Positions 48 to 54,141 of a stretch of 64,000 nt of DNA are shown in pieces; the first letter of the stretch is position 1, and every line of letters starts with the position of its first letter. This DNA is from Candidatus Aenigmatarchaeota archaeon (GTDB lineage: Archaea > Aenigmatarchaeota > Aenigmatarchaeia > QMZP01 > JAFGSV01), in assembly GCA_016934325.1 (NCBI GenBank), contig JAFGSV010000012.1, positions 44,373 to 108,372 on the forward strand, in the 5' to 3' direction. Both the position numbers and the translations under genes were made by a program. The notes below the pieces were generated by a model. The model had not been told where the DNA came from. It saw only the letters and a program-made list of their open reading frames with translations, and ran no database searches.

Positions 48-3000
48 ATGAGCTTCAATGCAAGCAGCGGGTTCTGGGAGAACATGACGAACTTAACATA
101 CAAGGGAATCCTTAATTTCCAGGTGAACTGCACGAGCCCCAGCTACGATAACCTGCTGCTGACAGACAGCGTGTCGATAAACAATACGGGCCCCTGCATT
201 TTTGGGAGAATAGGGGGACTCAGCACGAATCCCCTCCCCCCGATCACATGCTACGAGAACTCGATCTGCAGCTACGATTTCAGCCAGAACTGCACCGATG
301 ACGACCAGAACGACCTGGGCTCATTGACGTATGACTATAACGTCCTTGCCAAGTACGATCCTTATTTCGGCATGACGGCGGAGGGTGTCCTGCAGGTGAA
401 CATCACGAACCTGTCGTCATCGCAGCTCATCAACGTCCAGCTGTTCGTGGCTGACGACGAGACCCCCACCTCGACGAGCATGAACATCACGGTGAACCCC
501 ATCAACGACGCCCCGCTGTTCGACACGCTGCCTACCGGGGCGACGGAGGACCTGGAGTTCAACTCATCGAGCCCCGGGGCCATAATCACGGCCACGGACG
601 AGGAGGGCGATTACCCCCTGAACATCAACATAAACATAACCGGCTGCGACAAGGCAAGCTGGGTGTCTGGGCCGTGGAGGGACAACTGCACGCTTTTCTC
701 ATGGAACCAGACCTCGGGCACCACCGCCGAGATCCTGAATTTCACCCCGACGAACTGGGATGTGGGCGATTATACCGTCAATTTCACTGTTATCGACTCG
801 GGTGACACGATCCAGCCCCATAACGCCACCTATTCGACGGAGATAACGTTCACGGTGGCCAACGTCAATGACAGGCCGAACATAACCGCCGTCAACGGCA
901 CCGACATCGTGCTGTTCCAGGGCGACGCCATGTATCTTGTGTTCAACGGCACCGACATAGAGAACGATACCCTGAATTTCACAGCGATAACCCTGTACCA
1001 GAACCTGTCCGCTTTGAATAACACGGAGCTCTTCCCCATCACCAAGAACGATACCATGTATCCCAATGAGTCCGCTTACGGCATAATGGATTTCATAATC
1101 TCGAACGGGCAGGTGGGCAACTACACCATCAACGTCACCGTGATGGACAACGGCACCAGTCCAGACAACCTGACCGACTACATCCTGGTGAACGTCACCA
1201 TATACAACACGAACGACCCTCCCGCACTGGAGAATTTCTCGGACTCGTGGCTCGCCATACAGGAAGAGGAGTCGCTATTCTATTTCAACGCGAGCGATCC
1301 GGACTTCCTGACCGTCTACCTCGACAATCTTACGTTCGGATTCAATTTCACCGCCTGCTCGACGCTCAACGGCAGCGGTAACTGCAACGATTTCGGGGAG
1401 AACTCGACCTTCGCCATCACGAAGCTCGGCAACACCTCGGCGTATTTCCGGATAATAGCCGAGAGGGACGACACCGGTAACTACACGCTGAACCTGACGG
1501 TAACTGACAGCGGCGGACTCGTGAACTGGACCTGCATCAACCTGACGGTGGTGCCCGACTGGGCCCCGTCCATCAACGCGCCATCGTACCTTGAGATGAA
1601 CCAGGCGGAGGACTTCTGGTTCGTCTTCAACGTGACGGACGCCGAGAACGACACTCTGAACATCACGCACAGGACCCTATACCGCAACCTGACTTTTCTT
1701 TCATTCTCGCTGTTCTTCATCAACTTCAGCAATGCCACATACCCCCCTTATTACAACGCAACGATGAACTACACCCCCGTCTCGAACGACCAGGTGGGTA
1801 ACTATACAATCGAGGTCAACGCAACGGATGTCTGGAACAGGACGTCGGGCCATCTGCTCAACGTGACGGTATGGAACGTGAACGACAACCCTCAGGTGAT
1901 AAACTTCACTTCCTGCTACGATCCGGACGTCACGTATCCCCTGGACCTCACAGTCCCAGAGAATGCCCAGAACTGCTTCCTCCTCACGAATCCCGATTTG
2001 GACCTGCTGACGCCATATGGGGATGATTTGACGTATGTCTTCACTTTTAAGTCGTGCAGCGCCAGCGGCACCCTGCCGCCAGGGGGCAACTGCTCGGGGA
2101 GCATACCTTTCTCGGAGTATGGCGAAGTCGGGATGCTCAACTTCACGGCCGATGACGAGTCCTGGCAGGGCAACTACTCATACAACCTCTCCTTCACCGA
2201 CGGCGAGGGCGCGTACGCATCCGCGATCATAAACATATCGATCTACGCCGTGAACGACCCCCCGACGCTGGTATCCCTGGCGATCGAGAATTCGAGCAGC
2301 AACGGCACCAAAACGACCTATTACTTCCCCATAAACGATGCCATACCTTTCACGGAAGGGCAGGATTATAACCTGACGCTGACCGCGGTTGACGAGGAGG
2401 ACAACACCCCGCTTTATTATGACGTCAGCTTCACATGCATTCTTGACACGCCCGGGCCGTGCGGCCTTTTCTCATTCAACGGGACGACAGGTGAGGCAAA
2501 CCTGACCCCGGCGGACCTGCAGACCGGCAACTACACGGCAAACATGACCGCGAAAGACAGCGGCACCGTCACGGCGCCGCACAACGCCACTGGCTGGGAA
2601 CTGGTGAACATGACGGTGTTAGCCACGAACGACATCCCCAACATCGTGCTCTGGTCATGCCAGAACAGCGACTGCAGCAATCTCATGGAAGGGACGAGCA
2701 AGCTGTTCTGGCACAGGGCTAACGACCCGGATGGTCAGCCCCTCACATGCTACTTCTATCTGGACTGGATGCAGCCCACGCAAAGGCTGACCGAGACGAA
2801 GACCAACTGCAACTCCACCTCGAACGTCATGCACTGGTTCGCTCCCGGCTACGATGACGCCCTCAACTACACCAACGCCACCAGGAACTTCACCCTGGTG
2901 GCCGAGGATACCTTGGGCCTGAAGAATAACAAGACCCTCCTCATAAACATCTACAACGTGAACAGGCCGCCAAGGCTCGCGATGAACATATCTACCCCGA

Positions 3001-3986
3001 TAACCTGGCAGTCCAGGACCTCCATGACCGCCATAGACCTTGACAACTATTTTGAGGATGACTACGGGGAGGTCCTCTCTTACTCGTACCAGGGAGCCTC
3101 CAACGTCGATGTGGCGATTAACCCGATAACCAACGAGGTGACCCTGACCCCAAAGGGCGGCTGGTACGGCACCGACTGGATCGTGTTCGTGGCGAACGAC
3201 TCCGCGCTCACCAACACCTCCAACAACGTCACCCTGATGGTAATCTACAAGCCGCCGGAGACCGTGCCCTCCCCAAGCACTTCATACCCGAGCCCCAGGG
3301 TGGCATCCCTGGAGATAATGGTGCCCGAGATCATCACCCTCGAGGCGGGCCGGAGCACCCTGGCGAAGGTGGTCCTGCATAACGACGGCCAGTACGACCT
3401 GCTTGGCATAAACCTCTCGGCCATCACGAACGAGACGAACATAAGCCTTGCGCTGATGCAAACGTTCTTCCCGGAGATAAAGATCGGTTACAACGCAACC
3501 ACATGGCTCAACATATCCACGGGAGAGCTCAACGTGAACGAGACATACCTGGTCCAGCTGCTCGGGGACGTATCATACCCGGACATAACGGAGAGCGCAA
3601 CCGTTACCATAAGGCCCCTGCGCACGAACAAGACGGACGTGATAGTGAAGATAATCCTAGTCAAGGACATGTTCGAGGAGAACCCGGAGTGCATGGAGCT
3701 TTTCGGCCTCATACTCGAAGCGGAGGAGGCCCTGAACAGGGGGGACATAGCCGAGGCAAGGAGGCTGACGCAGCTCGCCATAGACAACTGCCAGGACATG
3801 ATCGACTATGCGGCCCTGAGGAGGAACCAGACCGCCTCCAAGCCTCCGTCGACGGTCGGGCAGATAATAATGAACCCCCTTTTCATAATGGGGTTCGTGC
3901 TGGCGCTGCTCGCGTTCAGCATGCTCGGGTACTGGCTCATGATAAGAAGGCAGCAGCCGATTGGGACGGCACAGGCCGTGGAATAG
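48..3986 (+). CDS. Large secreted cadherin-repeat surface protein (5' truncated), heavily N-glycosylated, with a C-terminal TM anchor
   Basis: No in-frame stop from nt 3 to 48, so the N-terminus lies outside the window. Dozens of N-x-S/T sequons. Repeated (V/A)NDxP motifs (VNDNP, NDAP, NDRP, NDPP) spaced ~100 aa apart, as in cadherin-like domains. C-terminal hydrophobic helix 'LFIMGFVLALLAFSMLGYWLMI' followed by a basic tail. Confidence 0.6.
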   Translation: MSFNASSGFWENMTNLTYKGILNFQVNCTSPSYDNLLLTDSVSINNTGPCIFGRIGGLSTNPLPPITCYENSICSYDFSQNCTDDDQNDLGSLTYDYNVLAKYDPYFGMTAEGVLQVNITNLSSSQLINVQLFVADDETPTSTSMNITVNPINDAPLFDTLPTGATEDLEFNSSSPGAIITATDEEGDYPLNININITGCDKASWVSGPWRDNCTLFSWNQTSGTTAEILNFTPTNWDVGDYTVNFTVIDSGDTIQPHNATYSTEITFTVANVNDRPNITAVNGTDIVLFQGDAMYLVFNGTDIENDTLNFTAITLYQNLSALNNTELFPITKNDTMYPNESAYGIMDFIISNGQVGNYTINVTVMDNGTSPDNLTDYILVNVTIYNTNDPPALENFSDSWLAIQEEESLFYFNASDPDFLTVYLDNLTFGFNFTACSTLNGSGNCNDFGENSTFAITKLGNTSAYFRIIAERDDTGNYTLNLTVTDSGGLVNWTCINLTVVPDWAPSINAPSYLEMNQAEDFWFVFNVTDAENDTLNITHRTLYRNLTFLSFSLFFINFSNATYPPYYNATMNYTPVSNDQVGNYTIEVNATDVWNRTSGHLLNVTVWNVNDNPQVINFTSCYDPDVTYPLDLTVPENAQNCFLLTNPDLDLLTPYGDDLTYVFTFKSCSASGTLPPGGNCSGSIPFSEYGEVGMLNFTADDESWQGNYSYNLSFTDGEGAYASAIINISIYAVNDPPTLVSLAIENSSSNGTKTTYYFPINDAIPFTEGQDYNLTLTAVDEEDNTPLYYDVSFTCILDTPGPCGLFSFNGTTGEANLTPADLQTGNYTANMTAKDSGTVTAPHNATGWELVNMTVLATNDIPNIVLWSCQNSDCSNLMEGTSKLFWHRANDPDGQPLTCYFYLDWMQPTQRLTETKTNCNSTSNVMHWFAPGYDDALNYTNATRNFTLVAEDTLGLKNNKTLLINIYNVNRPPRLAMNISTPITWQSRTSMTAIDLDNYFEDDYGEVLSYSYQGASNVDVAINPITNEVTLTPKGGWYGTDWIVFVANDSALTNTSNNVTLMVIYKPPETVPSPSTSYPSPRVASLEIMVPEIITLEAGRSTLAKVVLHNDGQYDLLGINLSAITNETNISLALMQTFFPEIKIGYNATTWLNISTGELNVNETYLVQLLGDVSYPDITESATVTIRPLRTNKTDVIVKIILVKDMFEENPECMELFGLILEAEEALNRGDIAEARRLTQLAIDNCQDMIDYAALRRNQTASKPPSTVGQIIMNPLFIMGFVLALLAFSMLGYWLMIRRQQPIGTAQAVE

Positions 3987-3992
3987 GGGCGG

Positions 3993-5255
3993 TCACTTGC
4001 GCTTGAGCTTCCTCAGGGCGTAATTTATCGGATTCTTGATGCTCTTCCTGCTACCTCCGCAGAGACCGTCGGGCTTGCACACCCCGAAGTCCTCGTAATA
4101 CCCGAGATTGGCGCAATTCGGCGGAGGCAGCGGCTTCCCCCTGCTCTTGTGCCATCTCGCCTGCCCCCTCACGTAGCTCTCCCTCAGCGGTGGGCTGTTC
4201 TTCTCGTTCCACTTCACCAGGAATTCGATGATGTCGTCCCAGCCCCATTTGAGAGACGAGAGGTAGTTGAGCAGGATGAATAGGCTCCTCTTCTTCCCGT
4301 CGGACAGCCCCTTCAGCATGTTCTGGATGCAGGGGGGCGCGAGCTCGATGGGGACGGCCCTGTCCAGGGTGATCTCGCGGCGGGGCCCCCTCTCCCTGCT
4401 GGACTTCTCCTTGACCCACCAGTCGACCGCTTCTACCACAAGCATCGCCGCCTCATTCTCGTCAGCCTCGGCAAGCCAGCCCCTGCCCGCACGCACATGC
4501 TCGGGGGAGGCGTCCTGCGGCCTGAAAGCATCGAGCTCTCCGGGATCCACGGGCACGGAAACGAGATGGCTCTTCTCGTGCAGCGAATAAGGCATCCTGA
4601 ACAGGTGCCTGGGGGATATCAGTATGGGGTCAACGTTGGCCACCTTGTAGGGGTCGATCCCCTCCGGGGTGATGATGTCGCCGACCTGCTGGCCTGTCTC
4701 CTCGGCGAGATGCTCGATCCCCCATCTCTTCAGCAGGGCCCTCTCCAGCGCCTCCCTCGCGAACCCCCTGAGGTACTGGGCTATCCTCCTGGCGAGCTCG
4801 GGGTACTGCTCGCTGGTCATCCCGTAGTCGACGACGCTCGGCATGGCCTCGAAAGGGATGCCTATGTGGAAGCCCGTCCCCCCGGTGAACTTTACATACA
4901 CGCTGCGCAGGCCGTGCTTCCTGAGCGCATCGATGAACACCTGCACCGCCACCTTCCCGTGCTCCGTGCGCTCGCAGTCTATGTCGAGGATGAGGTCCCA
5001 GCCGACCCTCGTGCTCTCGTAGTTCTCGGTGCCGACGACCATAGGGTTGGCCCACCTCTCGAGCGAGCCGTGGAAGGCCACGGCCCCTCCCCTGACCTGC
5101 ACCATGATGTCCTTCGGGTAGACCAGCGTGTTCGGCCTTGTCGAGAATCCGCCGTCCTTGAAAACGGCGACGACCTCCCTCCTCTCCGCCGCCTGCAAGA
5201 GCGCCTGCTGGACGTCCTGCCTTGAATAGTAATCGAAGATGCCCTTCCGGTTCAT
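3993..5255 (-). CDS. priS: DNA primase small subunit PriS fused to a PriL-type C-terminal Fe-S domain
   Basis: PriS catalytic motifs 'LILDIDCE' and 'KFTGGTGFHIG'. The C-terminal ~130 aa carries 'PPCIQNML...LFILLNYL...EFLVKWNE', matching the PriL-CTD 'PPCM...LFLKG...FW' signature, plus Cys residues C-x13-C-x5-C. Confidence 0.6.
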   Translation of the reverse strand: MNRKGIFDYYSRQDVQQALLQAAERREVVAVFKDGGFSTRPNTLVYPKDIMVQVRGGAVAFHGSLERWANPMVVGTENYESTRVGWDLILDIDCERTEHGKVAVQVFIDALRKHGLRSVYVKFTGGTGFHIGIPFEAMPSVVDYGMTSEQYPELARRIAQYLRGFAREALERALLKRWGIEHLAEETGQQVGDIITPEGIDPYKVANVDPILISPRHLFRMPYSLHEKSHLVSVPVDPGELDAFRPQDASPEHVRAGRGWLAEADENEAAMLVVEAVDWWVKEKSSRERGPRREITLDRAVPIELAPPCIQNMLKGLSDGKKRSLFILLNYLSSLKWGWDDIIEFLVKWNEKNSPPLRESYVRGQARWHKSRGKPLPPPNCANLGYYEDFGVCKPDGLCGGSRKSIKNPINYALRKLKRK

Positions 5256-5381
5256 GTGTATGATATTTCCGGCCGGGATTTATAGCTTTTACTTTTCTCC
5301 CACTTGCCATGGGCGGCAGGAATCTGCCGGCAGGGATCATGTTTTTTTAAAATATCCGAATAATTATTATCCGGTGTTCAA

Positions 5382-5894
5382 ATGATAACCTACGAGACCC
5401 TGCGCAAGATAGAGCGGGACGAGAGGGTTTCCAACAAGCTGGCCCAGCTGCCCGAGCGCTTCCTTTTCGAGGTCCAGGACTACCTGCGCAAGAAGGAGGC
5501 CATGTCCAGGGAGAAGGGCGACAGGTGGGAGCTGCAGACGGCAAAGCAGCGCTTCGAGAACATCATGCAGCTCAGGGAGAGGAAGATAATAAACTTCACA
5601 CTCTCCTTCGTCCGTTCCGGCGCCATGCCGGAGAACATGGTGCCCGAGGAGAGGGAGATGTTCGACTCCATCGCGAAGAGGGTCAAGGAATTCCAGGACA
5701 AGAGGGAGAAGGCCATGACCGGGGAGAAGGCGAGCTTCAAGACAGTCGCTTTCCTGCAGCAGCTGCCCCAGTTCGTGGGCATAGACATGGGATATTACGG
5801 CCCGTACCAGCAGGGCGACATCGCAACGGTCCCCGCGGACAACGCCATGGTGCTCGTCGAGAAGGGGGCCGCAGAGCTCGTCGAGGGAGGGTAG
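5382..5894 (+). CDS. Putative GINS subunit (Gins15/51-like)
   Basis: 170-aa helical N-terminus 'ETLRKIERDERVSNKLAQLPERFLFEVQDYL' resembles the GINS A-domain. It is divergently adjacent to priS, the known Gins15-PriS linkage. Confidence 0.4.
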   Translation: MITYETLRKIERDERVSNKLAQLPERFLFEVQDYLRKKEAMSREKGDRWELQTAKQRFENIMQLRERKIINFTLSFVRSGAMPENMVPEEREMFDSIAKRVKEFQDKREKAMTGEKASFKTVAFLQQLPQFVGIDMGYYGPYQQGDIATVPADNAMVLVEKGAAELVEGG

Positions 5895-6017: not shown

Positions 6018-6311
6018 ATGAAGTACCCGAAGAGCATGAGCATGTACTGCCCGAAATGCATGCGGCACACGGAGCACACGGTCAGCCTCAGCAAGAGGCT
6101 CGGCAGGGGCTTGGCCCACCCCACGTCCAAGGCTCAGAGGAGATTCAAGGCCAAGCTGAGGGGCTACGGCTCCTTCCCCAGGCCGAACCCGCACGGGGAC
6201 GGCAAGCCGACGAAGAAGGTGGACCTCAGGTACAAGTGCAAGGAGTGCAAGAAGATGCATACCAGGAGCGGGTTCAGGGCCAAGAAGTTCGAGATAAGGG
6301 GAAAGCAGTAA
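6018..6311 (+). CDS. rpl44e: Ribosomal protein L44e
   Basis: C4 zinc ribbon (CPKC...CKEC), basic 97-aa protein, 'KPTKKVDLRYKCKECKK' typical of L44e. Classical L44e-S27e-aIF2alpha neighbourhood. Confidence 0.8.
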   Translation: MKYPKSMSMYCPKCMRHTEHTVSLSKRLGRGLAHPTSKAQRRFKAKLRGYGSFPRPNPHGDGKPTKKVDLRYKCKECKKMHTRSGFRAKKFEIRGKQ

Positions 6312-6322
6312 GGAAGGTGCCC

Positions 6323-6784
6323 ATGATCGATCAGGTCGCCAGAGGGGTTTCAAAGACGTATAGCATAGAAGGAAAGGATTGCGCCTTCTTGACCAGCGGC
6401 CAGATCGACGGGGGCGGCGGATGGTATTTCACCGATACCTTGGAAAGGGTTCCTGTTTTCTACGCGACCGTCCTGGATTCGTTGCGTGATGATGAGGCCG
6501 GCGAACCCAGGGTGATGCATGAGGGCGAACCGGCGGTTGATTCATACCTGGCGGATTTAACGGATGAAGATGGCGTGGTCCATGAGGATCTCAATCCGAG
6601 GTCCGGGCCGGAGGAGGTGGGGTTCAAGCCTAGAGAGAGCCAGCTCGACTACGACGACCCCGAGGAGCCCATCGGCTACGAAAATGACCTTGACGTGGTC
6701 ATCTTCTATCCGGGCGGATGGCCCGATATCGACGATGAGAAAAGCGCGGACAATACAGACAACCCGCTCAGGATTGCCGCCTGA
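6323..6784 (+). CDS. Hypothetical acidic protein
   Basis: ORF from an internal ATG preceded by 'AGGAAGGTG'. D/E-rich C-terminus. No recognisable family. Confidence 0.3.
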   Translation: MIDQVARGVSKTYSIEGKDCAFLTSGQIDGGGGWYFTDTLERVPVFYATVLDSLRDDEAGEPRVMHEGEPAVDSYLADLTDEDGVVHEDLNPRSGPEEVGFKPRESQLDYDDPEEPIGYENDLDVVIFYPGGWPDIDDEKSADNTDNPLRIAA

Positions 6785-6858
6785 CGGGGGATGCCAGAAC
6801 GGAAGGGGCCCTCATTAACGGCATCCATTTTAATATTTGCGCATGATAATGTGATAAC

Positions 6859-7026
6859 ATGGCATCGGAATTCTACAAGGTGAAGTGCAAGGACTGCAAG
6901 AACGAGCAGGTGATATTCTCCAAGGCCGCCAGCGAGGTCAAGTGCCTCGTGTGCGGCACCGTCCTGGCTAAACCGGGCGGCGGCAGGGCTAGCGTCCAGT
7001 CCAAGATACTCAAGGCCGTCGAATAA
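6859..7026 (+). CDS. rps27e: Ribosomal protein S27e
   Basis: 55-aa protein 'VKCKDCKNEQVIFSKAASEVKCLVCG' with the S27e C4 zinc finger. It falls below the ORF-track length cutoff and was translated manually. Confidence 0.75.
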   Translation: MASEFYKVKCKDCKNEQVIFSKAASEVKCLVCGTVLAKPGGGRASVQSKILKAVE

Positions 7027-7061
7027 GGTTTTTAAATATCTCTCCTTTCTATTCTAATCTT

Positions 7062-7832
7062 ATGAGAAACCCAGGATTCCCGGAAAGGGGCGAGCTGGTC
7101 GTTTGCGAGATCAGCAAGATCAACCCCAACTCAGCTTTCGCCAACCTGCTCGAGTACGACAGGTCCGGTATGATCCACGTTTCAGAGGTCGCGAAGAGGT
7201 GGGTCAGGAACATCAGGGAGTTCGTGAAGCAGAACCAGCTCGTCGTGTGCAAGGTCATAAGGGTCGACGACAGCTACATCTCCCTGTCAATAAAGAGGGT
7301 CAACAAGAACCAGGCGGACAGGAGGCTGCAGGAGTACAAGAGGGAGAAGAACGCCGAGAAGTTCCTCGAGATCGTCGGCAAGCAGCTCGGCTTGGACCTC
7401 GACAAGACCTACGATGCGGTGGGTAACCAGCTGCTTGAGCAGTTCGGCTCCATGCACAGGACCTTCGAGATAGCGCTCAAGAACCCGGAGCTGCTGACCG
7501 AGAAGGGGATCGACAAGAAGTGGGCTGCCGCTTTGATTGACATCGCGAAGAAGAACTTCGTCCAGAAGACCTACGAGGTCAAGGCCGAGCTGACCCTGAC
7601 CTGCCACGCTCCCGGGGGCATTGACATGATAAAGGGGACCCTGCAGACGGTCGCCGGCAAGGGCCTGCAGGTGAGGTACATCTCCGCCCCGAAGTACAAC
7701 GTCGTCGGCAGGGGGGAGAACATCAGGGAGGTCAAGGAGCTGGTCGAAGGGGCATGCGAGGAAGCGGTGAGGTCGATCGAGGGCGCGGGAGGCGAGGGTA
7801 GCTTCACGCTTGCTGGCAAGAACGAACAGTAA
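7062..7832 (+). CDS. eif2a: Translation initiation factor 2 alpha subunit (aIF2alpha)
   Basis: N-terminal S1 domain 'GELVVCEISKINPNSAFANLLEYDRSGMIHVSEV'. Size and gene order match aIF2alpha. Confidence 0.8.
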   Translation: MRNPGFPERGELVVCEISKINPNSAFANLLEYDRSGMIHVSEVAKRWVRNIREFVKQNQLVVCKVIRVDDSYISLSIKRVNKNQADRRLQEYKREKNAEKFLEIVGKQLGLDLDKTYDAVGNQLLEQFGSMHRTFEIALKNPELLTEKGIDKKWAAALIDIAKKNFVQKTYEVKAELTLTCHAPGGIDMIKGTLQTVAGKGLQVRYISAPKYNVVGRGENIREVKELVEGACEEAVRSIEGAGGEGSFTLAGKNEQ

Positions 7833-28148: not shown

Positions 28149-30413
28149 TTGCCAATGGTGATTTTGATGGCGGCCGGAGACTACGAGTATGACGAGAATG
28201 AGCAGAGGCTGAAGATCAACTGCCTTGGGTGCATATACGGGGCCAGCATAGAGGACTTCGCGGGGTGCATGACGAGGGTGATCGACAAGATCCTGGAAGT
28301 CAAGAAGGTCAAGACTATAGTCCTGGCGAAGGACAGGGAGTACGAGTACGGCCCCGAGCAGACCGCGATACTCGTGGAGATAGCCCGGGTCATCGAGGAG
28401 GTCGTCAGGGAGAAGCTGATGACCAAGGTTCCTGTCAGGGACAGCCTGCAGAAGAGGATGCTGCCCGAATTCAACAGCAGGCTGCAGAGGATAATACTCA
28501 ACCTGCTCAGGAGCGACCCCATAGGCGCGTACGTCGAGCTCGTGCGGGAGATACGCCGCGTCAGGATAAAGATGAAGGAGACCCGCTACAGGGGCGCCTA
28601 CGACTTCTACAGGGATTTCGAGAGGGACGTCCTCGGGGTGATAAAGGCCAAGCTCGAGAACACCCAGCTGATAAAGCTGGCCAGGCCCCACATGGCAGGC
28701 TACCACATCGGCGACAGGTCGCTCTACAGGGAGATATTCGTCCCGAGCATAAGGCCCAACTTCATGCTCACCAGGTACATGATAACGCCGCCCGAGAACG
28801 GGAAGTCCGTGGAGAGGTACAAGATCGGGGACATAGAGGTCGAGATATTCAAGCTGCCCGACAGCGCTTCGTATTTCTACTACGTGCTGCCCCCGGAGTT
28901 CACGCTTTCTGAGGAGAAGTACGCGGTGCTGGACGCCGCCAGGAGGTACATGGCCACCCACAAGCCAAAGTCGGCGGAGTTCGTCAAGACGGGGCGGATC
29001 AGGGAGGTGTTCTACAACATAGGCAAGGACATGATCCGGGAGGTCGCGGACCAGCAGGGGATAAACCTGACGAACAGCGACCTCGAGCAGCTCTCGGTCA
29101 TTCTGACGAGGTACACGGCCGGTATGGGTGTGCTCGAGATACTCCTCTCGGACGAGAAGATCCAGGACATCTACATCAACTCCCCTGTGGAGTCGCAGCC
29201 CATACTGGTCTTCCACAACGACTACGAGGAGTGCAGGACGAACCTCATACCCACCCAGGGCGACGCGGAATCGTGGGCGACGAGGCTCAGGCTGCAGTCG
29301 GGCAGGCCCCTCGACGAGGCGAACCCCGTTCTCGATACCGACATCGCGGTCCCGGGAGGGAAGGCGAGGTTCTGCGTGATCACCAACACCCTGTCCCCGC
29401 ACGGGCTTGGGTTCTCCATAAGGAGGCACAGGGACAAGCCCTGGACGCTGCCCCTTTTCATAAAGGCTAAGATGCTCGACCCACTCGGGGCGGGCCTGCT
29501 CTCATTCCTTATTGACGGCACGGCGAGCCTGCTGGTCGCGGGCGGCAGGGGGGCGGGAAAGACCTCGCTCCTGGCGTCGCTCATGCTGGAGATGCTTCCC
29601 AAGACGAGGATGGTCGTCATCGAGGACACGCTGGAGCTTCCCGTGGACCAGCTCAGGAGCCTGGAATACAACATTGAGAGCCTGAAGTCGAGGTCCGTCC
29701 TCACCATGATAGAGACGGAGATGGCCAGCGACGAGGCTCTTAGGACCGCGCTGAGGCTGGGGGACTCTGCTCTGATTCTGGGGGAGGTCAGGAGTACAGA
29801 AGCGAAAGCACTCTACGAGGCCATGCGGATCGGGGCGCTCTCGAACGTCGTGGTCGGGACCATCCACGGGGAATCGGCCTACGGGGTCTTCGACAGGGTC
29901 GTGAACGACCTGGGAGTCCCCATGACGTCGTTCAAGGCCACCGACATAATCCCCGTTTGCAAGACGCTAAGGTCGGCGGACGGACTGCACAGGTTCAGGA
30001 GGATGACGGAGATAACCGAGGTCAGGAAGAAATGGGACACCAACCCCGACAAGGAGGGCGGCTTCGTCAACCTGATGGAGTACTCCGCGAAGGAGGACAA
30101 GCTCAAGCCGACCGATACCCTGGTGAACGGGGAGTCGGAGACGATAAACAGGATCGCCAGCTACGTGAGGGAGTGGCACGGGGACTGGCAAACCGTATGG
30201 GAGAACATAAACCTGAGGGCCAAGGTGAAGAGCGCGATTGTCGACATGAGCATAAAGCTGCAGAGGCCTGAGCTGCTAGAGGCGGACTGGATCACCCGGT
30301 CGAACTCACATTTCCATATAATCTCAGAGAATATCATGAAGGAGACGGGCTCGGTCGATTCCAAGACAGTCTACAACGAGTGGCTCGCCTGGATGAAGCG
30401 AAGCCTCAGATGA
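28149..30413 (+). CDS. Type II/IV secretion-family ATPase (FlaI/VirB11/GspE superfamily), unusually long at 754 aa
   Basis: Walker A 'GGRGAGKTSLL', Asp box 'MVVIEDTLEL', Walker B 'DSALILGEVR', His box 'GTIHGES'. There is an ~430-aa N-terminal extension and an ~160-aa C-terminal extension. Confidence 0.85.
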   Translation: MPMVILMAAGDYEYDENEQRLKINCLGCIYGASIEDFAGCMTRVIDKILEVKKVKTIVLAKDREYEYGPEQTAILVEIARVIEEVVREKLMTKVPVRDSLQKRMLPEFNSRLQRIILNLLRSDPIGAYVELVREIRRVRIKMKETRYRGAYDFYRDFERDVLGVIKAKLENTQLIKLARPHMAGYHIGDRSLYREIFVPSIRPNFMLTRYMITPPENGKSVERYKIGDIEVEIFKLPDSASYFYYVLPPEFTLSEEKYAVLDAARRYMATHKPKSAEFVKTGRIREVFYNIGKDMIREVADQQGINLTNSDLEQLSVILTRYTAGMGVLEILLSDEKIQDIYINSPVESQPILVFHNDYEECRTNLIPTQGDAESWATRLRLQSGRPLDEANPVLDTDIAVPGGKARFCVITNTLSPHGLGFSIRRHRDKPWTLPLFIKAKMLDPLGAGLLSFLIDGTASLLVAGGRGAGKTSLLASLMLEMLPKTRMVVIEDTLELPVDQLRSLEYNIESLKSRSVLTMIETEMASDEALRTALRLGDSALILGEVRSTEAKALYEAMRIGALSNVVVGTIHGESAYGVFDRVVNDLGVPMTSFKATDIIPVCKTLRSADGLHRFRRMTEITEVRKKWDTNPDKEGGFVNLMEYSAKEDKLKPTDTLVNGESETINRIASYVREWHGDWQTVWENINLRAKVKSAIVDMSIKLQRPELLEADWITRSNSHFHIISENIMKETGSVDSKTVYNEWLAWMKRSLR

Positions 30414-30501
30414 CCAAGCTTCGCACCCGGCACTCATGCTGGTTCTTCCGCTTTCCGGATCCGGTTCCAACAAATTAAAGCTGCAAGCACAATTATTTAC
30501 C

Positions 30502-32613
30502 ATGGCTTTGTTCGGCAGGAAGAAGAGGGTGCATCGCCCCCAGTCCCCTTATCGCGGCGTGAGCATCCCCGAGCAGTCAAGGCGGATAAGCATAGAATCG
30601 AGGGAATACAGGATATACAAGAAGAGGGTCGAGAGGAAGCTCAGCTGGTACGAGAGGCTCGCAAGGGCATGCGAGAAGCTGCTGAAGGCTAGCTTCGACA
30701 AGAAGACCGAGGACGAGCTGGCGAAGGCGATAGACTTCACGGGCCTCAGGATATCCCCTCAGGCCCCTTTCTCGATCTTCATAATAATGGTATTCCTGTC
30801 CACCATCGCCTCTCTCTTCCTGTTCGCCTTCGCGGTCTTTACGAGCCCTTTCTACATAGTAGCCGCGGCGATAGGGGGGCTTGCCGTGGGGTACTACATG
30901 CTCAGGTATCCCATAAACCTCATGAAGTCCATGAGGATAAAGGCAAGCTCCCAGGTCGTCCTCGCGATACTGTACATGGTGGTCAGCATGAGGATCTCCC
31001 CCAACATGGAGAGGGCCCTGAGGTTCACCTCCTCCAACATAAGCGGGGCCCTTGCCTGGGACATGAGGCGGCTCATGTGGGACATCGAGATGGGGAAATA
31101 CTACTCGGCCAACGAGGCCACCACGGACTACATAGCGAAGTGGAAAGCGGAGAACGAGGAATTCTCGGAGGCGCTGAGGCTGATAAGGGAATCCCAGCGC
31201 CAGGTGCCCGGGACGGCGGAGAAGACGCTGGACGAGGCACTCAGGGTCGTCCTCGAGGGGACGAGGGACAGGATGAAGCGGTACGCGCAGGACCTGCAGA
31301 TGCCCGTAACCATGCTGCACATGATGGGGATCGTGATGCCGATCCTGGGTTCTGTCATGGCCCCCATGGTCGCGGTCTTCATGGCCGACTCCATAACCCC
31401 GTGGCATTTCATCCTGGGCTACAACATCGCCCTGCCGATAATGCTCCTGTGGTTCATAAACAACATTCTTAGCAAGAGGCCCGTCACCTTCTCGCAGGTG
31501 GACATATCGAAGCACCCCGAGCTGCCTCCCGCCGGCAGCTTCATGGTCAGGTCCAAGAGGAGCAGGGCGGCGATCCCCGTGTTCCCGCTGGCCCTGCTGC
31601 TGGGGCTGCTGTTGATACTCCCGAGCATCTACTACTTCTCCGAGCATCCCGAATACATGGTGATCCCGTCCAAGGTCGTCGACGGCAGCGTCGTCTTCGA
31701 GGACGTGGACGACCCCGACAGCCTGTTCTCGCTCACAATGTCCCTGCTCATAATCATCGGGGCGGGGGCTGCCATGGCCTTCTTCTTCATAGTCTCGAAC
31801 ATCCAGAGGTCGAGAATCGAGAATAGCGTGTACAAGATGGAGTCCGAGTTCGAGCTCGCCCTGTTCCAGCTGGGCAACAGGATATCCGGAGGGACACCTC
31901 TTGAGCTTGCGGTAGAGAAGGCCAGGGATGACGTCAAGGACCTCGAGATAGCCAACCTGTTCGAGCTGACGCTCAGAAACATGAAGACCTTCGGGATGAC
32001 GTTCGAGAACGCCCTGACGCACCCGAAGCTGGGCTCGCTCAGGTATTATCCGAGCAGGCTCATCCAGAACGTCATGAGGACGATAACCGACACGGCGAAG
32101 AGGGGGGTCCAGTTCGCTTCGGAGTCCATGCTTACGGTAAGCAGGTACCTGAAGAGCGTCAGGGAGACCCAGGAGTACATGAGGACCCTGATGGCGGAGA
32201 CGACCAGCAGCATGCAGTTCCAGGCCTACGCCATGGCCCCCCTGGTCAGCGGCCTGATAGTCGCCCTCTCGCAGGTCATCATCCAGGTGCTGGTGTTCCT
32301 GGGGAGGAGGCTGGACGACATAGGCTTCCAGGACGTCTTCGGCATAGACGCCACCAAGATACTCGGCTCATCGTCAGCCATAACGGCGCCCATGTTCCAG
32401 CTGATTATCGGCGTGTACCTGATCCAGGTGATAATGATAATCGCCATCTTCGTGACCAAGATAAACAGGGGCGAGGACAAGGTCATGCAGTGGTATTCGG
32501 CGGGGAAGATGATCATAGTGGCCCTGATGATCTACTTCCTGGTCGTCATTGGCAGCAGCATGATGTTCGGGAGCATGATAGAGGGCGCGATGGCGACGAT
32601 CGCTAGTTCATGA
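30502..32613 (+). CDS. FlaJ/TadC/PilC-like polytopic platform protein (two T2SSF-type repeats)
   Basis: Two repeats of TM-TM-cytoplasmic helical domain-TM. 'LGNRISGGTPLELAVEKA' is T2SSF-like. Immediately downstream of the ATPase. Confidence 0.75.
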   Translation: MALFGRKKRVHRPQSPYRGVSIPEQSRRISIESREYRIYKKRVERKLSWYERLARACEKLLKASFDKKTEDELAKAIDFTGLRISPQAPFSIFIIMVFLSTIASLFLFAFAVFTSPFYIVAAAIGGLAVGYYMLRYPINLMKSMRIKASSQVVLAILYMVVSMRISPNMERALRFTSSNISGALAWDMRRLMWDIEMGKYYSANEATTDYIAKWKAENEEFSEALRLIRESQRQVPGTAEKTLDEALRVVLEGTRDRMKRYAQDLQMPVTMLHMMGIVMPILGSVMAPMVAVFMADSITPWHFILGYNIALPIMLLWFINNILSKRPVTFSQVDISKHPELPPAGSFMVRSKRSRAAIPVFPLALLLGLLLILPSIYYFSEHPEYMVIPSKVVDGSVVFEDVDDPDSLFSLTMSLLIIIGAGAAMAFFFIVSNIQRSRIENSVYKMESEFELALFQLGNRISGGTPLELAVEKARDDVKDLEIANLFELTLRNMKTFGMTFENALTHPKLGSLRYYPSRLIQNVMRTITDTAKRGVQFASESMLTVSRYLKSVRETQEYMRTLMAETTSSMQFQAYAMAPLVSGLIVALSQVIIQVLVFLGRRLDDIGFQDVFGIDATKILGSSSAITAPMFQLIIGVYLIQVIMIIAIFVTKINRGEDKVMQWYSAGKMIIVALMIYFLVVIGSSMMFGSMIEGAMATIASS

Positions 32614-32777
32614 ACGCCCGCCGTAAACGCCATGTGATAAAATAGAACCGCGCGAATGAGAAAGTCAATCCATGGCCTTAGAATTGCGCTGATCAATGAC
32701 GCAAGCCAGTTCACCAATCTGAATCTTACCAATCTGAATGATACTATTTATATTTCCGGGATAATATACATTTATCC

Positions 32778-35700
32778 ATGGGAATGAAATCCCAGATATC
32801 CTTTTTGTCAGGAACCCCGATGCAGCTGATCCTGGTCCTTATAGCGGCGATAGGATTCCTGGCATTCGTGACCCTTGGCGCAGGGAACATCACGCAGTTC
32901 TTGCGCGAGACGTGCGAGAAATACCCCGAACTGCCATTCTGTGGGGGGCTTGAAGCGGTCGAGGCTAGGGATTACCAGACCGCCAAGGCATCAACGGAAG
33001 CTCTGGTATGCGCAATAAATTCGGTTGCTCAGGGAAGCGAATGGCTAGGTGGCGGACAGATCGACTGTAATGAGTATTTCGGGAAATCTGGTCCAGTTGC
33101 CGTCCCAGACTCGGATTATGAGAGGATCGAAAAATCGATAAACGCCGGTCTGGGCGTGTTTGACGACGAAGGATGCAGGGACAGGTGCATCGAGGAATTG
33201 TGCCAGGGGATTCCGGGCTGCGAGGTTGAAAGCTCGACATACATTGAAACACTCAAGACGGTTGACGCCGGCCATGAAGGCGATGTCAATTATACCTCAA
33301 GGCGATGCGAATGCGTTGTAGGAATTTCCAATGACCCCAGAGTGAGTTGCGGACAAGAGGAAACAGAAAAATTCGAATACTATGCCGTTAGAGAAGCCGG
33401 GACCATCCTTGAGTGCGAATGCATTTACAGTGGAGGAAGTGAAAACATCATCAAATCAAAGGCCTTCGGCTTGACGAAGGAGCAGGCCGTGTATAACTGC
33501 CATGACTTAGCGAAAAGGGACGTCGAGATCCAGTGCGAAGAGATAAATATAGAGGATAGCCCTGGAGGAAATGCATGGTACCTCAGCATACAGGCCGATT
33601 CCGTAATATTAAAAGGGGAGATGAGGAGGGGTCTGTGCAAGCTGGACGGTGAAAGAGAGAAATTCCATGTATACGGATATGACGACACGAACGTATTTGC
33701 CCAATGCGATTATGACTATGACGCATCCAGATTCTCTATCAATCCCTGGCTGATAAACACCGCCGTCAGCAGGGAGGTTGTCAAATACGAGGATTTTACC
33801 GGCGAACTGATATTTTACAAGAAGGACTTCACGGGAAGGGTCCCCTATTACTATCAGGCAAATCAATTCGAATGCGCTTTGAGCAACTTCGAGTTACCGC
33901 AAGAGATTACTGATTGGGAAGAATGGGTGCCTTGGCACGGAGACCCCAGGTTTTTAATCTACTGGCAGAATTTCCCCGCCGAAGAAGACATGTGGACGAT
34001 GAAAACCAACTGGAAGTTATATGTTGTCTTAGGGATAATAAGCGTCTTGCCGGTCCTGAAATCCGCAAGGATAGTTGCTGGAACGGCTGCACGAGCGGTC
34101 TTGAGTAGAATTTTCAGTTCTCTTGGGAAGGAGGCCGCGGAGAATGTGATAAAAAAAGGCGTAACAACAAGTATGATAAAAAAGGCTTCTACGACGGCAG
34201 TGAAAAACATGATGAAAAAGGGGACTCTATCGAAAACGGTCGGTGGAGAAGTGTTAAGCAGACTTGGAAGGGCGAATATCAATAACGCCATGAAAGAAGC
34301 TGGTGGAGAATTGGCAGAGAGAATAGCAAGGACTTCTGTAGCACAGGCGCCCCAGATTGCTCAGGAATATGCGGTAGATGCCGCAGGAAGGGCACTGACG
34401 CAGGCGGGATTGTATGGCATACCCCAGGAAGCAGCTGAAAAGCTCATGAAAGAATCGGGAGAGGCCGCAAGCAGACAGGCATTGAAATATATGGGCGCAT
34501 ACGGAATGAGGGAACAGTTCGTCAAGCTAATAGGTGATAGGGTCGTGGGAAAAGAATTACCCTGGACAGCCTTGAAGTTTTCAACACTCGTAGGTGCCGC
34601 CAGGATAGCCGAGATAGCCGACAGTATGACACAAGCCAGATTTGAAGTTTTTCCGAACGAAATAGTGTTAAAAGAGGCCCTTGGAAGCCCGGATGAATTC
34701 GATCTCGTTGATGAAATGGATGGTTCACCGGTTCTCATTGTCGTTCCGAACAGGGAATCTAAGTATATATTGCCACAAGTTTTTGACACGGAGAAAACCT
34801 TCCATATGGCATCACCATGCTATCTCGAGTCAGTGACCGTTAGCGGGGTCGATGCCCGATGCTCCGAGTACACATACAACAGAGAAGAAGACGGCTCAAC
34901 TTTTACGAGTTGCGGCGGGGAAATCGAAATAACGGGCAAGGGAGAGCCGTGCGATATAAACCTCTATGGCATGAGCAATTTGGGCCCAATGGAATTCATC
35001 TACTACCTCCATGCCATACCGGACCCAATGTCAGTCATATACAATGATGAGAAAGCACTTGATGAAGGGAAGAATGCGTATGCACCGATTGAATACGAAG
35101 AAGATTGCCCGACGACAATACAATGCGGTAGCAATAACGTTTATTACCATTTTGATGGCACGGAATGGAAATGGAAATCTCCCAGCGCAAATATCGATGA
35201 TTACAGACCAGTGCAACAGGTTTCTGACACGGAATGGCAAAATCTTGAACAAAATTACGACTTCGAGACCGCACACTTCGATATTATGAACGGCTTGGCG
35301 GGCAAGAACTTCGAATCCGGTGTTTCCGTTATTCAATCAACCCTCAACAGCGACAAAGACACAAAAGGAGGCAAAACCAGTGACGACTATCTTATAATAC
35401 ACCAATTTAAGAAATCGCCGAGTGAAACGTCGCCTAGTGATAACTATAATAACCTGGCTGAAATAATGACAGAAGATGTCAGCATGAGCGCCGGTTATTA
35501 TATAATCCCATTCGCGGAAAGCACGCTTCTGTATTACAAACCGGAGCCCGAAACGCTCAAAATAGGTAAAGTCGAGGGAGATAAAATAACCACATACGAA
35601 CTCACGAAGGACAGCGAAAGTTACCTTCATAATGTGTACACGCCAGTGGATTTTGAAGACGTGGTTGACATTCAGAAGAGCAGCAGTACGAGATTGGGAG

Positions 35701-36239
35701 AAAGAACGGCTATTATCACAACTTTCAGGATTGATGTCCCTGACTGGTCAGACTCCTATGGCGGTGACATAACATGGGTCAATATAGAAATCAATAATCC
35801 GGACGAGAAAGCAATAGAGATAGAGCCTTCCAGCGTGAACGGCGGCATCTTCGCAACAATAACGCTTTCCGATGAAGGTGATAACGGCATACTCCATTCA
35901 ATCATAATCGAACAAGACGATAAGGCTAAAACGATGACAGATTTCAATTATGACATGGAGGGTTTTGATTACTACAACCTAAGGAACTGCATAAGCAAGG
36001 GCGTCATCGTTGAAATGGGTAAGAAGAAAGGCGACGCGACCAATTATTGCACGGGTGGCCTTTCTACAGGTAAAGCATGGCTTGAATATGGCGGTGACAT
36101 TGCACTTGTGGCAGGTGTGGTGGTCGGCACATGTTTAGGAGGATGGCCTGGCGCTGCGGTTGCTGCTGTTGGGGGTCTTATCGAAACGGGATCTGAATAC
36201 GCGAGCGAGAAAATGGGCGAATGGCCAAACTCCTGGTGA
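32778..36239 (+). CDS. Giant Cys-rich membrane protein (N-terminal hydrophobic anchor, internal hydrophobic segment, C-terminal Gly-rich TM)
   Basis: 1153 aa. N-terminus 'FLSGTPMQLILVLIAAIGFLAFV'. About 30 Cys in the first 400 aa. A K-rich middle region. C-terminal 'IALVAGVVVGTCLGGWPGAAVAAVGGLI'. Confidence 0.6.
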   Translation: MGMKSQISFLSGTPMQLILVLIAAIGFLAFVTLGAGNITQFLRETCEKYPELPFCGGLEAVEARDYQTAKASTEALVCAINSVAQGSEWLGGGQIDCNEYFGKSGPVAVPDSDYERIEKSINAGLGVFDDEGCRDRCIEELCQGIPGCEVESSTYIETLKTVDAGHEGDVNYTSRRCECVVGISNDPRVSCGQEETEKFEYYAVREAGTILECECIYSGGSENIIKSKAFGLTKEQAVYNCHDLAKRDVEIQCEEINIEDSPGGNAWYLSIQADSVILKGEMRRGLCKLDGEREKFHVYGYDDTNVFAQCDYDYDASRFSINPWLINTAVSREVVKYEDFTGELIFYKKDFTGRVPYYYQANQFECALSNFELPQEITDWEEWVPWHGDPRFLIYWQNFPAEEDMWTMKTNWKLYVVLGIISVLPVLKSARIVAGTAARAVLSRIFSSLGKEAAENVIKKGVTTSMIKKASTTAVKNMMKKGTLSKTVGGEVLSRLGRANINNAMKEAGGELAERIARTSVAQAPQIAQEYAVDAAGRALTQAGLYGIPQEAAEKLMKESGEAASRQALKYMGAYGMREQFVKLIGDRVVGKELPWTALKFSTLVGAARIAEIADSMTQARFEVFPNEIVLKEALGSPDEFDLVDEMDGSPVLIVVPNRESKYILPQVFDTEKTFHMASPCYLESVTVSGVDARCSEYTYNREEDGSTFTSCGGEIEITGKGEPCDINLYGMSNLGPMEFIYYLHAIPDPMSVIYNDEKALDEGKNAYAPIEYEEDCPTTIQCGSNNVYYHFDGTEWKWKSPSANIDDYRPVQQVSDTEWQNLEQNYDFETAHFDIMNGLAGKNFESGVSVIQSTLNSDKDTKGGKTSDDYLIIHQFKKSPSETSPSDNYNNLAEIMTEDVSMSAGYYIIPFAESTLLYYKPEPETLKIGKVEGDKITTYELTKDSESYLHNVYTPVDFEDVVDIQKSSSTRLGERTAIITTFRIDVPDWSDSYGGDITWVNIEINNPDEKAIEIEPSSVNGGIFATITLSDEGDNGILHSIIIEQDDKAKTMTDFNYDMEGFDYYNLRNCISKGVIVEMGKKKGDATNYCTGGLSTGKAWLEYGGDIALVAGVVVGTCLGGWPGAAVAAVGGLIETGSEYASEKMGEWPNSW

Positions 36240-45617: not shown

Positions 45618-45988
45618 ACAATAAAGGTGCCGGGAAATCGAAAGCTCGGATAGCAAGGGAATTCCCCGAGAATTTCGTCATCGGCGGGTTGCTTGTGATG
45701 CTTGCGATATGGGTCGCCAGGGCCTCGACCCCGGCCATAGGCGGGATAATAGCGGCCGTGCCGATCAGGTATGCGGTCACATGGTCGATCGCGGCGGTAC
45801 GCCGGGGTAAGGAATTCGCGGAGGACATGGCGAGGGGCTCGGTCATCGGGATGCCCGGCAACATCACGTTCTCGTTAGCCTTGTTTGCCATGCTTTTGGT
45901 TTCAATCGATTTCCTGACGGCGTTCATCGTGTCCATACTGGCAGGAATAGCGGTGCTTGCCCTGTGCAAGTTTACCTTTCCAGAATGA
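45593..45988 (+). CDS. Small membrane protein (paired family, copy B)
   Basis: 'AIGGIIAAVPIRYAVTWSIAA' paralogous to copy A. Overlaps copy A by 25 nt. Confidence 0.45.
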   Translation: MHRSGDAMNNKGAGKSKARIAREFPENFVIGGLLVMLAIWVARASTPAIGGIIAAVPIRYAVTWSIAAVRRGKEFAEDMARGSVIGMPGNITFSLALFAMLLVSIDFLTAFIVSILAGIAVLALCKFTFPE

Positions 45989-48900: not shown

Positions 48901-49013
48901 GAAAGCTCGACCCTGTCAAGGGGCCTGACATCGATATCCTCCGCATCCTCCTTGTTCAGGATTATGATGGGCTTATCCGCTTCCAGTCCAAGTAGCTTTG
49001 CCTTGAGCAGCAT
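45972..49013 (-). CDS. deoA: AMP phosphorylase (thymidine-phosphorylase family) interrupted by a 500-aa intein
   Basis: The N-terminal AMPpase-specific domain and C-terminal 'SIGGVPGDETSMVLVPIIAAAGLTIPKTSSRAITSPAGTADRFE...LVWGG' align to archaeal AMPpase. The extein junction 'YDKH|...|SIGGVPG' restores the 'DKHSIGGVPG' phosphate loop. Confidence 0.85.
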   Translation of the reverse strand: MLLKAKLLGLEADKPIIILNKEDAEDIDVRPLDRVELSLRGKKGTAIVNVATRFIKPGQIGLHSEIAEHMEAGSGDRIEISPSEPPESLIHIREKLSGNALKDSDIYKIVKDTVNRKLSEIEMTAFVTALYYHGMTTKEAAALSRAMAITGKKLDLGRKVVYDKHSVTWDTPVMIKEGGRRRLVKIGEFIDNFFKMNCKKIEKVGNRAEYIETEDADYEALSFDGNLKISFKPITGIYRHPAPKKLYKITLLGNREVVTTHCHSLFVLKDGEIKSIPSKNLKVGDFVVVPREVPESGAYIEKIDLVRGLLKLPPELTEDVFIKGVSESYRGIIPFRERMYDLIPFNVYRKKKVRLPANAKLKLKHGNGIPIFVPVKESLVKILGYWIAEGYTNENGVHFSLGTKETEIIKDIKDCVRNVFSLETTITHPHKTAVHLNVYNKLLAKIFDNVFKLKHGARFKEVPELIFNLPRKLQLEFLRSYFKGDGYFRRNYEIISDTASKELSIGLQYLLSVCGISYSTSYREAGFREFPSGYKSETAPVNFIYTQANPVLGNGGKNTAAFLNFIPIEQANLNRFGSCDFWDHETRRGFRRNRYITFNKARSLLDLVPNGGEAETKRIAYSNLGFLAVKSIEEVSCAGHEYVYDFCVEGYENFVGGYGPIFLHNSIGGVPGDETSMVLVPIIAAAGLTIPKTSSRAITSPAGTADRFECLAPVELELDEIKKVVHKTNGCLVWGGSVDLAPADDLFIKIEYPLSIDPLLLPSVMSKKKAVGAKYLVIDIPTGEEAKVKTTKEAESLAERFIELGKMLKINTVGASTFGEQPIGFAIGPALEAREALCTLMNGKGPGDLVDKVTHLAGILLDFKLGRGGNKEAMRLLRSGKAYKKLKEIIAAQGGDPGIKPDDLPIGSKNVDVKSTVNGTVGWINNSALVEIARASGTPKDKGAGILLHKKMGDRVKKGDILFEVYADKGYKLERAMRLTKDLKILGIGERFQMLIEKIPKKVEHPKYFILER
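47019..48518 (-). mobile_element. Intein with LAGLIDADG homing-endonuclease domain (in AMP phosphorylase)
   Basis: Starts 'SVTWDTPVMIKEGG' (block A with Ser1). LAGLIDADG-like 'KILGYWIAEGYT' and 'LRSYFKGDGYF'. Ends 'VGGYGPIFLHN' with +1 Ser. The segment is visibly AT-richer than the exteins. Confidence 0.75.
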
Positions 49014-53098: not shown

Positions 53099-53115
53099 GA
53101 TGAACTTGGAAATAC

Positions 53116-54060: not shown

Positions 54061-54141
54061 CCAGCTAAAACATAATTCTTCGCAAGTTATTTAAATTGGA
54101 AACTTTTCACTCACTTTTCACCCTGGATCGCGGGATCCGGT

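Follow-up and report, generated by a model that had tools for sequence, protein, structure and literature searches.

Background

Single-chain DNA primases, in which the catalytic PriS domain and the Fe-S domain of PriL are carried by one polypeptide, are known from DPANN archaea. For Nanoarchaeum equitans, Raymann et al. 2014 (PMC3914693) credit the observation of the fusion to Iyer et al. 2005; they themselves added the Nanohaloarchaea and the Parvarchaeota, and discussed the fused state as a shared derived character. Dombrowski et al. 2020 (PMC7414124) reported the fused gene as a synapomorphy, present in all Cluster 2 DPANN, which are defined to include the Aenigmarchaeota, and in the Undinarchaeota; Cluster 1 DPANN keep the canonical priS and priL. 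The fused protein is stated to be the sole archaeo-eukaryotic primase (AEP) of Cluster 2 DPANN (PMC7414124) and of N. equitans (PMC10250227). Here we describe a gene of this kind, at 3993..5255 of a stretch of 64,000 nucleotides (the window; contig JAFGSV010000012.1, positions 44,373 to 108,372) from a metagenome-assembled genome (MAG) of Candidatus Aenigmarchaeota. It very probably encodes the replicative primase of the cell, as the one-chain type that is typical of Cluster 2 DPANN.

The biochemistry of the N. equitans enzyme, NEQ395, was described by Schneider, Bergsch and Lipps 2023 (PMC10250227), who also mention that "numerous other members" of DPANN have the fused form. NEQ395 is a monomer whose domains work only in cis and which makes RNA primers of about 9 nt. 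Mutants of its catalytic domain, including D87/D89, are inactive, and R301/R303/F306 mutants lose priming and keep extension. Shortening of the linker between the domains leads to aborted primers, and lengthening to lower activity. The NEQ395 cysteines hold a [4Fe-4S] cluster, which is dispensable in vitro.

Results and discussion

A single reading frame with both primase domains

The gene is one continuous open reading frame (ORF) on the minus strand, from an ATG at 5255 to a stop codon at 3993..3995, that holds both primase domains, and it is thus not organized as a canonical pair of separate PriS and PriL genes. Its start codon is credible, because in the alignment the N-terminus starts level with the N-termini of 29 full-length homologues. 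The identical protein is on record as MBN2330699.1, a Candidatus Aenigmarchaeota MAG entry titled "hypothetical protein JXC85_02690". Base composition around the gene is unremarkable, and the codon coordinates of the key residues were verified against the window DNA. A first inspection of this DNA, made without database searches (the sequence-only reading), had proposed a PriS catalytic domain fused to the C-terminal domain (CTD) of PriL, on the strength of short motifs and a C-terminal cluster of cysteines. All of these are in the translation where they were said to be: LILDIDCE (D91, D93), KFTGGTGFHIG (H130), PPCIQNML (C309), LFILLNYL, FLVKWNE and the cysteine group C381/C393/C399. The proposal itself was borne out by Pfam, by a match to PriL of Pyrococcus abyssi, by Foldseek and by residue conservation, as detailed below.

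Both of the Pfam families against which the sequence-only reading was to be checked were found. PF01896 (DNA_primase_S) matches residues 101-237 with 27.4 bits (gathering score 26.8), and PF04104 (DNA_primase_lrg) matches residues 291-384 with 25.5 bits (gathering score 22.4). The latter match takes up positions 94-191 of the 266 in the profile and falls in the Fe-S C-terminal part of the family, and no match to the PriL N-terminal domain was found in the window primase with Pfam (PF04104). Since these scores are marginal, 30 aligned homologues were scanned one by one; PF01896 matched 29 of the 30 (best E 1.1e-9) and PF04104 matched every one (best E 1.6e-9). A weaker LigD Prim-Pol match in Pfam overlaps the catalytic core. 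In NCBIfam, the PriS and PriL equivalogs were matched below threshold only, as is to be expected because the fusion is divergent.

The PriS-type catalytic domain

Conservation was assessed over 79 sequences, comprising 78 complete ORFs from GTDB species-representative genomes and the window protein. In the catalytic domain H62, D91, D93, H130, D209, R216, H217 and R220 are invariant throughout this set, and these residues include the AEP motifs I to III (Table 1). The segment RHLFRMPYS, with R216, H217 and R220, carries nucleotide-binding residues. It aligns with the "NHLLKSPFSVHPKTGRISVP" stretch of human and Xenopus Pri1, both by phmmer and with a family profile searched against the PDB, where the profile matched eukaryotic Pri1 chains over this motif III region; the single-sequence phmmer matches to PDB chains were weak (E 0.03-0.3).

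An AlphaFold2 model of the whole primase, built from the family alignment, has a mean predicted local distance difference test score (pLDDT) of 79, and a Foldseek search of the PDB with this model retrieved AEP catalytic folds only. These were Prim-PolC at E 7e-6, the LigD polymerase domain, some 25 human, Xenopus and yeast Pri1 chains (E 2e-4 to 1e-2) and PriS of Pyrococcus furiosus and P. abyssi (E 2e-3 to 1e-2). Compact bacterial AEPs plausibly head this list because the catalytic domain is without the canonical PriS insertions. A zinc knuckle in the PriS domain was also considered, C94, H99 and H114 being invariant in the alignment of close relatives, and was rejected; a third of the wider family has V and I instead of C94 and H99, and therefore no zinc site is claimed.

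The linker and the PriL-type Fe-S domain

The AlphaFold2 models place a helix after the catalytic domain, followed by a loop of lower confidence that extends to P307. Some members of the family (P0043, P0054, P0079, P0085 and P0115) have a linker insertion of about 27 residues, in alignment columns ~330-360. Such variants may differ in their primer products, because linker length tunes primer length and activity in NEQ395.

For the C-terminal domain, the family profile matched P. abyssi PriL in the PDB (9f26_B, E 3.8e-6), with one aligned stretch at the PPC helix and another at the "PPNC...C.PD..C" segment of the C-terminus. In this alignment the segment from C381 to C399 pairs with "PPNCDK...LCTPDKHC" of P. 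abyssi PriL. C309, C381 and C399 are invariant in the 79 sequences and C393 is kept in 71. On the second helix of the domain, K322 and R323 are likewise invariant, and 74 of the 79 sequences keep F326; by analogy with NEQ395, these residues are predicted to contact either the nucleotide that initiates synthesis or the primer's 5' end.

When residues 266-420 were modelled alone (pLDDT 79.8), Foldseek gave weak matches only. The best was PriX of Sulfolobus solfataricus, with Foldseek probabilities of 0.91 and 0.85, E 0.4-0.6 and a root-mean-square deviation of 2.9 A over 76 columns; yeast PriL and RepB' stood lower in the list, at E >6. PriX is regarded as a diverged relative of the PriL-CTD.

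That PriX, which has no Fe-S cluster, gives the best structural matches to the isolated domain raises the alternative that this region of the chain is a PriX-like or generic helix bundle without a cluster, the cysteines being structural or zinc-binding. The replacement of C393 in 8 of the 79 family members fits such a view, as does the finding that Cys-to-Ala mutants of NEQ395 are still active in vitro, from which it follows that the cluster is not needed for catalysis (PMC10250227). Against this stand the four cysteines themselves, which occupy the PriL ligand positions in the alignment with P. abyssi PriL and are, but for the fourth, invariant, and the properties of the homologous NEQ395, which is brown in colour and has an absorbance at 410 nm that depends on its cysteines (PMC10250227). 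We consider a domain without an Fe-S cluster very improbable, and the assignment as a homologue of the PriL-CTD is retained.

A proposed mechanism for the single-chain primase

The mechanism that we propose rests largely on the analogy with NEQ395. In a compact AEP core of about 265 residues, D91, D93 and D209 would build a two-metal site, with H130, H217, R220 and H62 placed to meet the incoming nucleotide. The tether between this core and the PriL-CTD homologue of about 130 residues would consist of a helix of about 23 residues and a flexible loop. In that homologue C309, C381, C393 and C399 would bind a [4Fe-4S] cluster, and K322, R323 and F326 would keep the initiating nucleotide and the primer's 5' end in place. 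The protein would act as a monomer, its two domains cooperating in cis to form first a dinucleotide and from there a short RNA primer, and the length of the tether may help to set the length of that primer. In canonical primases, the PriL N-terminal domain docks PriL onto PriS; it would be redundant here, because a covalent link joins both domains.

By spacing, every residue that is essential in NEQ395 has an invariant or near-invariant counterpart in the 79 sequences. H62, D91, D93, H130, D209, H217 and R220 of the window protein correspond in this way to H58, D87, D89, H125, D194, H202 and R205 of NEQ395, and its PriL-domain residues to C289, R301/R303, F306, C364, C376 and C384.

Distribution of the fused primase

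A protein search returned 1641 homologues. Among the 120 that were listed, all are full length (417-465 amino acids) except one entry of 329 amino acids, and all of the named entries are from Aenigmarchaeota. In a tblastn scan of one genome per GTDB species, at least 571 loci, each from a species representative, were found to encode a relative. The best 80 of these loci belong mostly to Aenigmatarchaeota and include genomes labelled Nanoarchaeota (L065, L067 and L071) and Woesearchaeota (L077). The relatives in these last genomes align over residues 6-420 with 40-45% identity and, because they are full length, the fused architecture is common to several phyla. The sequence-only reading had held that fused forms were reported only from a few reduced lineages, and the rarity that this implies needs adjusting, given the report for all Cluster 2 DPANN and Undinarchaeota and the number of species-level genomes found here. 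The fusion is the expected state for the Aenigmarchaeota lineage and an already known, documented hallmark of the small DPANN archaea to which the contig belongs.

This distribution leaves virtually no room for an artefact in which adjacent priS and short priL genes were merged by a frameshift or a lost stop codon in the MAG: the short primase of the nanohaloarchaeon Ca. Nanosalina J07AB43 is encoded by two adjacent genes (Raymann 2014, PMC3914693), so that split and fused states both occur in DPANN, but the same uninterrupted architecture recurs across 1641 homologues that were assembled independently (of the 120 listed, nearly all have full length), and the 78 fused ORFs from GTDB species genomes are complete and align without a break in the linker region, and a merger is excluded because the architecture is universal across independent assemblies.

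Gene neighbourhood and the question of a mobile origin

The sequence-only reading had also placed a putative GINS gene divergently adjacent to the primase. This gene is gins51, whose product matches Gins51_C with 60.4 bits (E 1.4e-16, Pfam). Beyond it lie genes for L44e, an acidic ORF, S27e, aIF2-alpha, SRP54, Pus10, L21e, Rpb4/RpoF and TFB (coordinates of the nearer ones in Table 1), and the neighbourhood is the PriS-Gins15 / L44e-S27e-aIF2-alpha supercluster of archaea (Berthon et al. 2008, PMC2643942). Among the best 80 related loci, the primase gene adjoins gins51 in 59, and the usual order, with all genes in the same direction, is primase, gins51, L44e, S27e, aIF2-alpha, SRP54. By tblastn, none of the 80 related loci gave a match to the acidic ORF at E <=1e-5; in several relatives, too, L44e and S27e are separated by 250-560 bp.

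This setting bears on the alternative that the gene is not a chromosomal replicative primase at all but a mobile-element primase-polymerase with a PriL-like helix bundle, such as PolpTN2 of pTN2 or ORF904 of pRN1. Fusions of PriS and PriL-like domains are known on archaeal plasmids (PMC3973330; PMC10250227), LigD/Prim-Pol structures were the best Foldseek matches of the primase model, and horizontal transfer via integrative elements has been raised as a possible origin (Raymann 2014, PMC3914693). Furthermore, residues 200-354 have a remote PHROG match (phrog_16345, "primase", profile length 972, E 1.8e-8), which reaches from motif III across the linker into the beginning of the PriL-like domain. 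Yet the gene is embedded in a housekeeping cluster (gins51-L44e-S27e-aIF2-alpha-SRP54) that recurs in those 59 loci, no helicase or integrase partner stands beside it, and BLAST against plasmid and phage collections gave no match to the window primase. The pTN2 fusion is without sequence similarity to DPANN primases (Raymann 2014, PMC3914693), and the vertical inheritance, congruent with the species tree, that is reported in PMC7414124 refutes a mobile-element reading. The gene does not belong to the mobile-element primase-polymerases of the pTN2, pRN1 or RepB' kind, and we judge this alternative highly improbable. An ancient viral connection stays formally open through the phrog_16345 match.

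Within its supercluster the primase gene is inverted in the window. The closest relatives are six loci (L001-L006, 60-83% identity), and in those of them that reach gins51 (L002, L003, L005 and L006, 60-70% identity) the primase gene is likewise divergent from gins51 over a short spacer; compared with L007-L080, the inversion looks local and subclade-specific. On its other side, the primase gene stands tail to tail with the gene of a surface protein of about 1300 amino acids, an arrangement found in the window and in six of six closest relatives. This neighbour is kept beside the primase in the closest relatives only (46-74% identity, L001-L006). It has a hydrophobic C-terminal segment resembling a membrane anchor and is probably a glycosylated surface protein.

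In the window, primase and gins51 diverge from an intergenic region of 126 bp. In this spacer, the primase ATG has a TATAAA on the minus strand 24-29 bp upstream of it (5279-5284), and the gins51 ATG a TTTAAA 31-36 bp upstream (5346-5351). Judged from the sequence, both TATA-like boxes are at a plausible distance from their starts and may function in promoters. It is conceivable, if unlikely, that the adjacency of the two genes reflects a direct tether between primase and Gins51 that couples priming to the CMG helicase, with the PriL N-terminal domain lost by fusion and with the inversion placing the two genes under a shared divergent promoter region, which would keep them co-regulated. The reason to think of such a tether is that the fusion removed the PriL N-terminal domain, the canonical site of subunit docking and partner contacts. 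Separately, and with as little likelihood, the phrog_16345 match may point to an ancient mobile-element origin of the fusion, as suggested before in Raymann 2014.

Table 1 Features of the primase gene and its neighbourhood (positions in the window)
Feature	Coordinates	Strand	Basis or remark
Probable surface protein, 1312 amino acids, rich in N-x-S/T sequons	48..3986	plus	weak Big_9 and PKD-like matches
Fused PriS-PriL primase gene, complete	3993..5255	minus	420 codons and stop; identical to MBN2330699.1
PriL C-terminal Fe-S domain, residues 290-420	3996..4388	minus	PF04104; P. abyssi PriL match
C381, C393, C399, predicted [4Fe-4S] ligands 2-4	4059..4115	minus	alignment with P. abyssi PriL
K322, R323, F326, second helix of the CTD	4278..4292	minus	spacing from the PPC cysteine matches that of NEQ395 R301/R303/F306
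C309, PPC motif, predicted [4Fe-4S] ligand 1	4329..4331	minus	invariant 79/79; aligns with the PPC of P. abyssi PriL
Predicted linker helix, about residues 267-289	4389..4457	minus	AlphaFold2 models
AEP (PriS-type) catalytic domain, residues 1-265	4461..5255	minus	PF01896 and Foldseek
AEP motif III (D209), then RHLFRMPYS (R216, H217, R220)	4596..4631	minus	all invariant 79/79
AEP motif II, sxH (G128-F129-H130)	4866..4874	minus	H130 invariant 79/79
AEP motif I, hhhDhD (D91-I-D93), metal-binding aspartates	4977..4985	minus	invariant 79/79
Divergent intergenic region, 126 bp, two TATA-like boxes	5256..5381		
gins51: Sld5 helical domain, then Gins51 C-terminal domain	5382..5894	plus	Pfam
L44e	6018..6311	plus	translation half of the PriS-Gins-LSIN supercluster
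Acidic ORF, about 153 amino acids, between L44e and S27e	6323..6784	plus	no Pfam match
S27e	6859..7026	plus	from sequence and tblastn conservation, not the Pfam scan
aIF2-alpha	7062..7832	plus	end of the translation block 6018..7832

Points that weigh against the assignment

The sequence-only reading had seen no separate priL in the window, and this proved correct. Hidden Markov models of each half of the family, searched against the six-frame translation, detected no second PriS- or PriL-like ORF in the 64 kb, and Pfam scans found no further AEP or PriL domain among the 42 main ORFs of the window. The scope of this search nevertheless counts against the assignment as the replicative primase, since a separate PriL or a second primase is possible in the remaining genome or in the roughly 52 kb of the 116-kb contig that lie outside the window. 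The same is true of three further points. The window protein alone passes both Pfam thresholds by narrow margins. The equivalence of its residues with those of NEQ395 was drawn from spacing and from Nanoarchaeota MAG homologues, not from a direct alignment. Finally, domain homology, residue conservation, distribution and gene context were computed for the window primase itself, and the monomeric state, primer length, Fe-S binding and roles of single residues suggested for it are extrapolated from NEQ395.

Other features of the window

Elsewhere in the window, two genes carry inteins. An AMP phosphorylase (DeoA-like; Glycos_trans_3N, Glycos_transf_3 and PYNP_C domains) at 45972..49013 on the minus strand has a LAGLIDADG-endonuclease intein at about residues 177-665, and a T2SSE/FlaI-type secretion ATPase at 58043..61147, also on the minus strand, bears at about residues 315-786 an intein that includes a LAGLIDADG domain. 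A form III RuBisCO gene (49020..50288) adjoins that of the AMP phosphorylase, and an IF-2B-family protein at 50843..51670 is probably a ribose-1,5-bisphosphate isomerase; together, the three constitute the archaeal AMP salvage pathway. A second T2SSE ATPase is encoded at 28149..30413, and two T2SSF membrane proteins at 55285..57024.

A cluster of DNA-metabolism genes on the minus strand (52403..55179) encodes a RadC-like JAB protein, RadA (Rad51 family) and an RPA-like single-stranded DNA-binding protein with a Rep_fac-A_C domain and an OB fold. Rfam reports a tRNA of 120 nt at 51750..51869 on the plus strand (45 bits) that was not reported by ARAGORN, and which presumably has an intron inside. 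Two large ORFs of 725 and 1153 amino acids without a Pfam match occupy 30436..36239 on the plus strand; the longer lies in the part of the window with the lowest GC content (0.456 at 34-36 kb, versus about 0.55-0.59 elsewhere).

Significance

The main use of the fused primase is that of a marker, which confirms the contig as Cluster 2 DPANN (Aenigmarchaeota), and the finding opens no new question. It adds one more sequence to a family that has been proposed as a minimal, tractable model of archaeo-eukaryotic primases. It also calls for a correction of annotation, as MBN2330699.1 and most of its homologues were deposited under the title "hypothetical protein" or under no more than "primase catalytic subunit"; the proper name for them is fused PriS-PriL DNA primase.

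Comparison with known systems

Several known systems share parts of this organization. In the fusions of pTN2 (PolpTN2), pRN1 (ORF904) and RSF1010 (RepB'), as here, an AEP domain is tethered in cis to a helical initiation domain. Those proteins are encoded on mobile elements, often with an extra helicase or other domains, and their helix bundles are of uncertain relation to PriL, whereas the window gene is chromosomal, stands in a housekeeping cluster and has a clear PF04104 match and the Fe-S cysteines. With the canonical two-subunit primases (P. abyssi 9f26, P. furiosus 1g71 and human Pri1/Pri2) it shares homologous catalytic motifs and the Fe-S CTD, and it retains the association of canonical priS with gins51 (Gins15) and the L44e-S27e-aIF2-alpha cluster. 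Unlike them it is a single gene, with no PriL N-terminal domain, no conserved PriS zinc knuckle and no helical insert.

NEQ395 and the window protein are both single chains of about 400 amino acids (393 in NEQ395, 420 in the window), with a compact AEP core bearing motifs I-III and a PriL-CTD with four cysteines; both lack the PriL N-terminal domain, and the spacing of catalytic, nucleotide-binding and cysteine residues is similar. In the model of NEQ395, too, a long helix connects the domains and a flexible loop comes after it (PMC10250227). The differences are that the two belong to different phyla, Nanoarchaeota MAG homologues being only about 42-45% identical to the window protein, that the spacings between cysteines 1 and 2 and between 3 and 4 are off by 2-3 residues, and that T127 takes the position of NEQ395 K122. 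Of the traits that mark the NEQ395 type, the window protein has AEP motifs I-III at the N-terminus, PriL-CTD homology with four cysteines as predicted ligands, a predicted helical linker and loop with no PriL N-terminal domain, and a sequence related to fused primases from other phyla of DPANN. Compared with the fused priS-priL of Cluster 2 DPANN and Undinarchaeota, finally, the window gene is that gene, and what sets it apart is only the inversion relative to gins51 within its subclade and the label "hypothetical protein".

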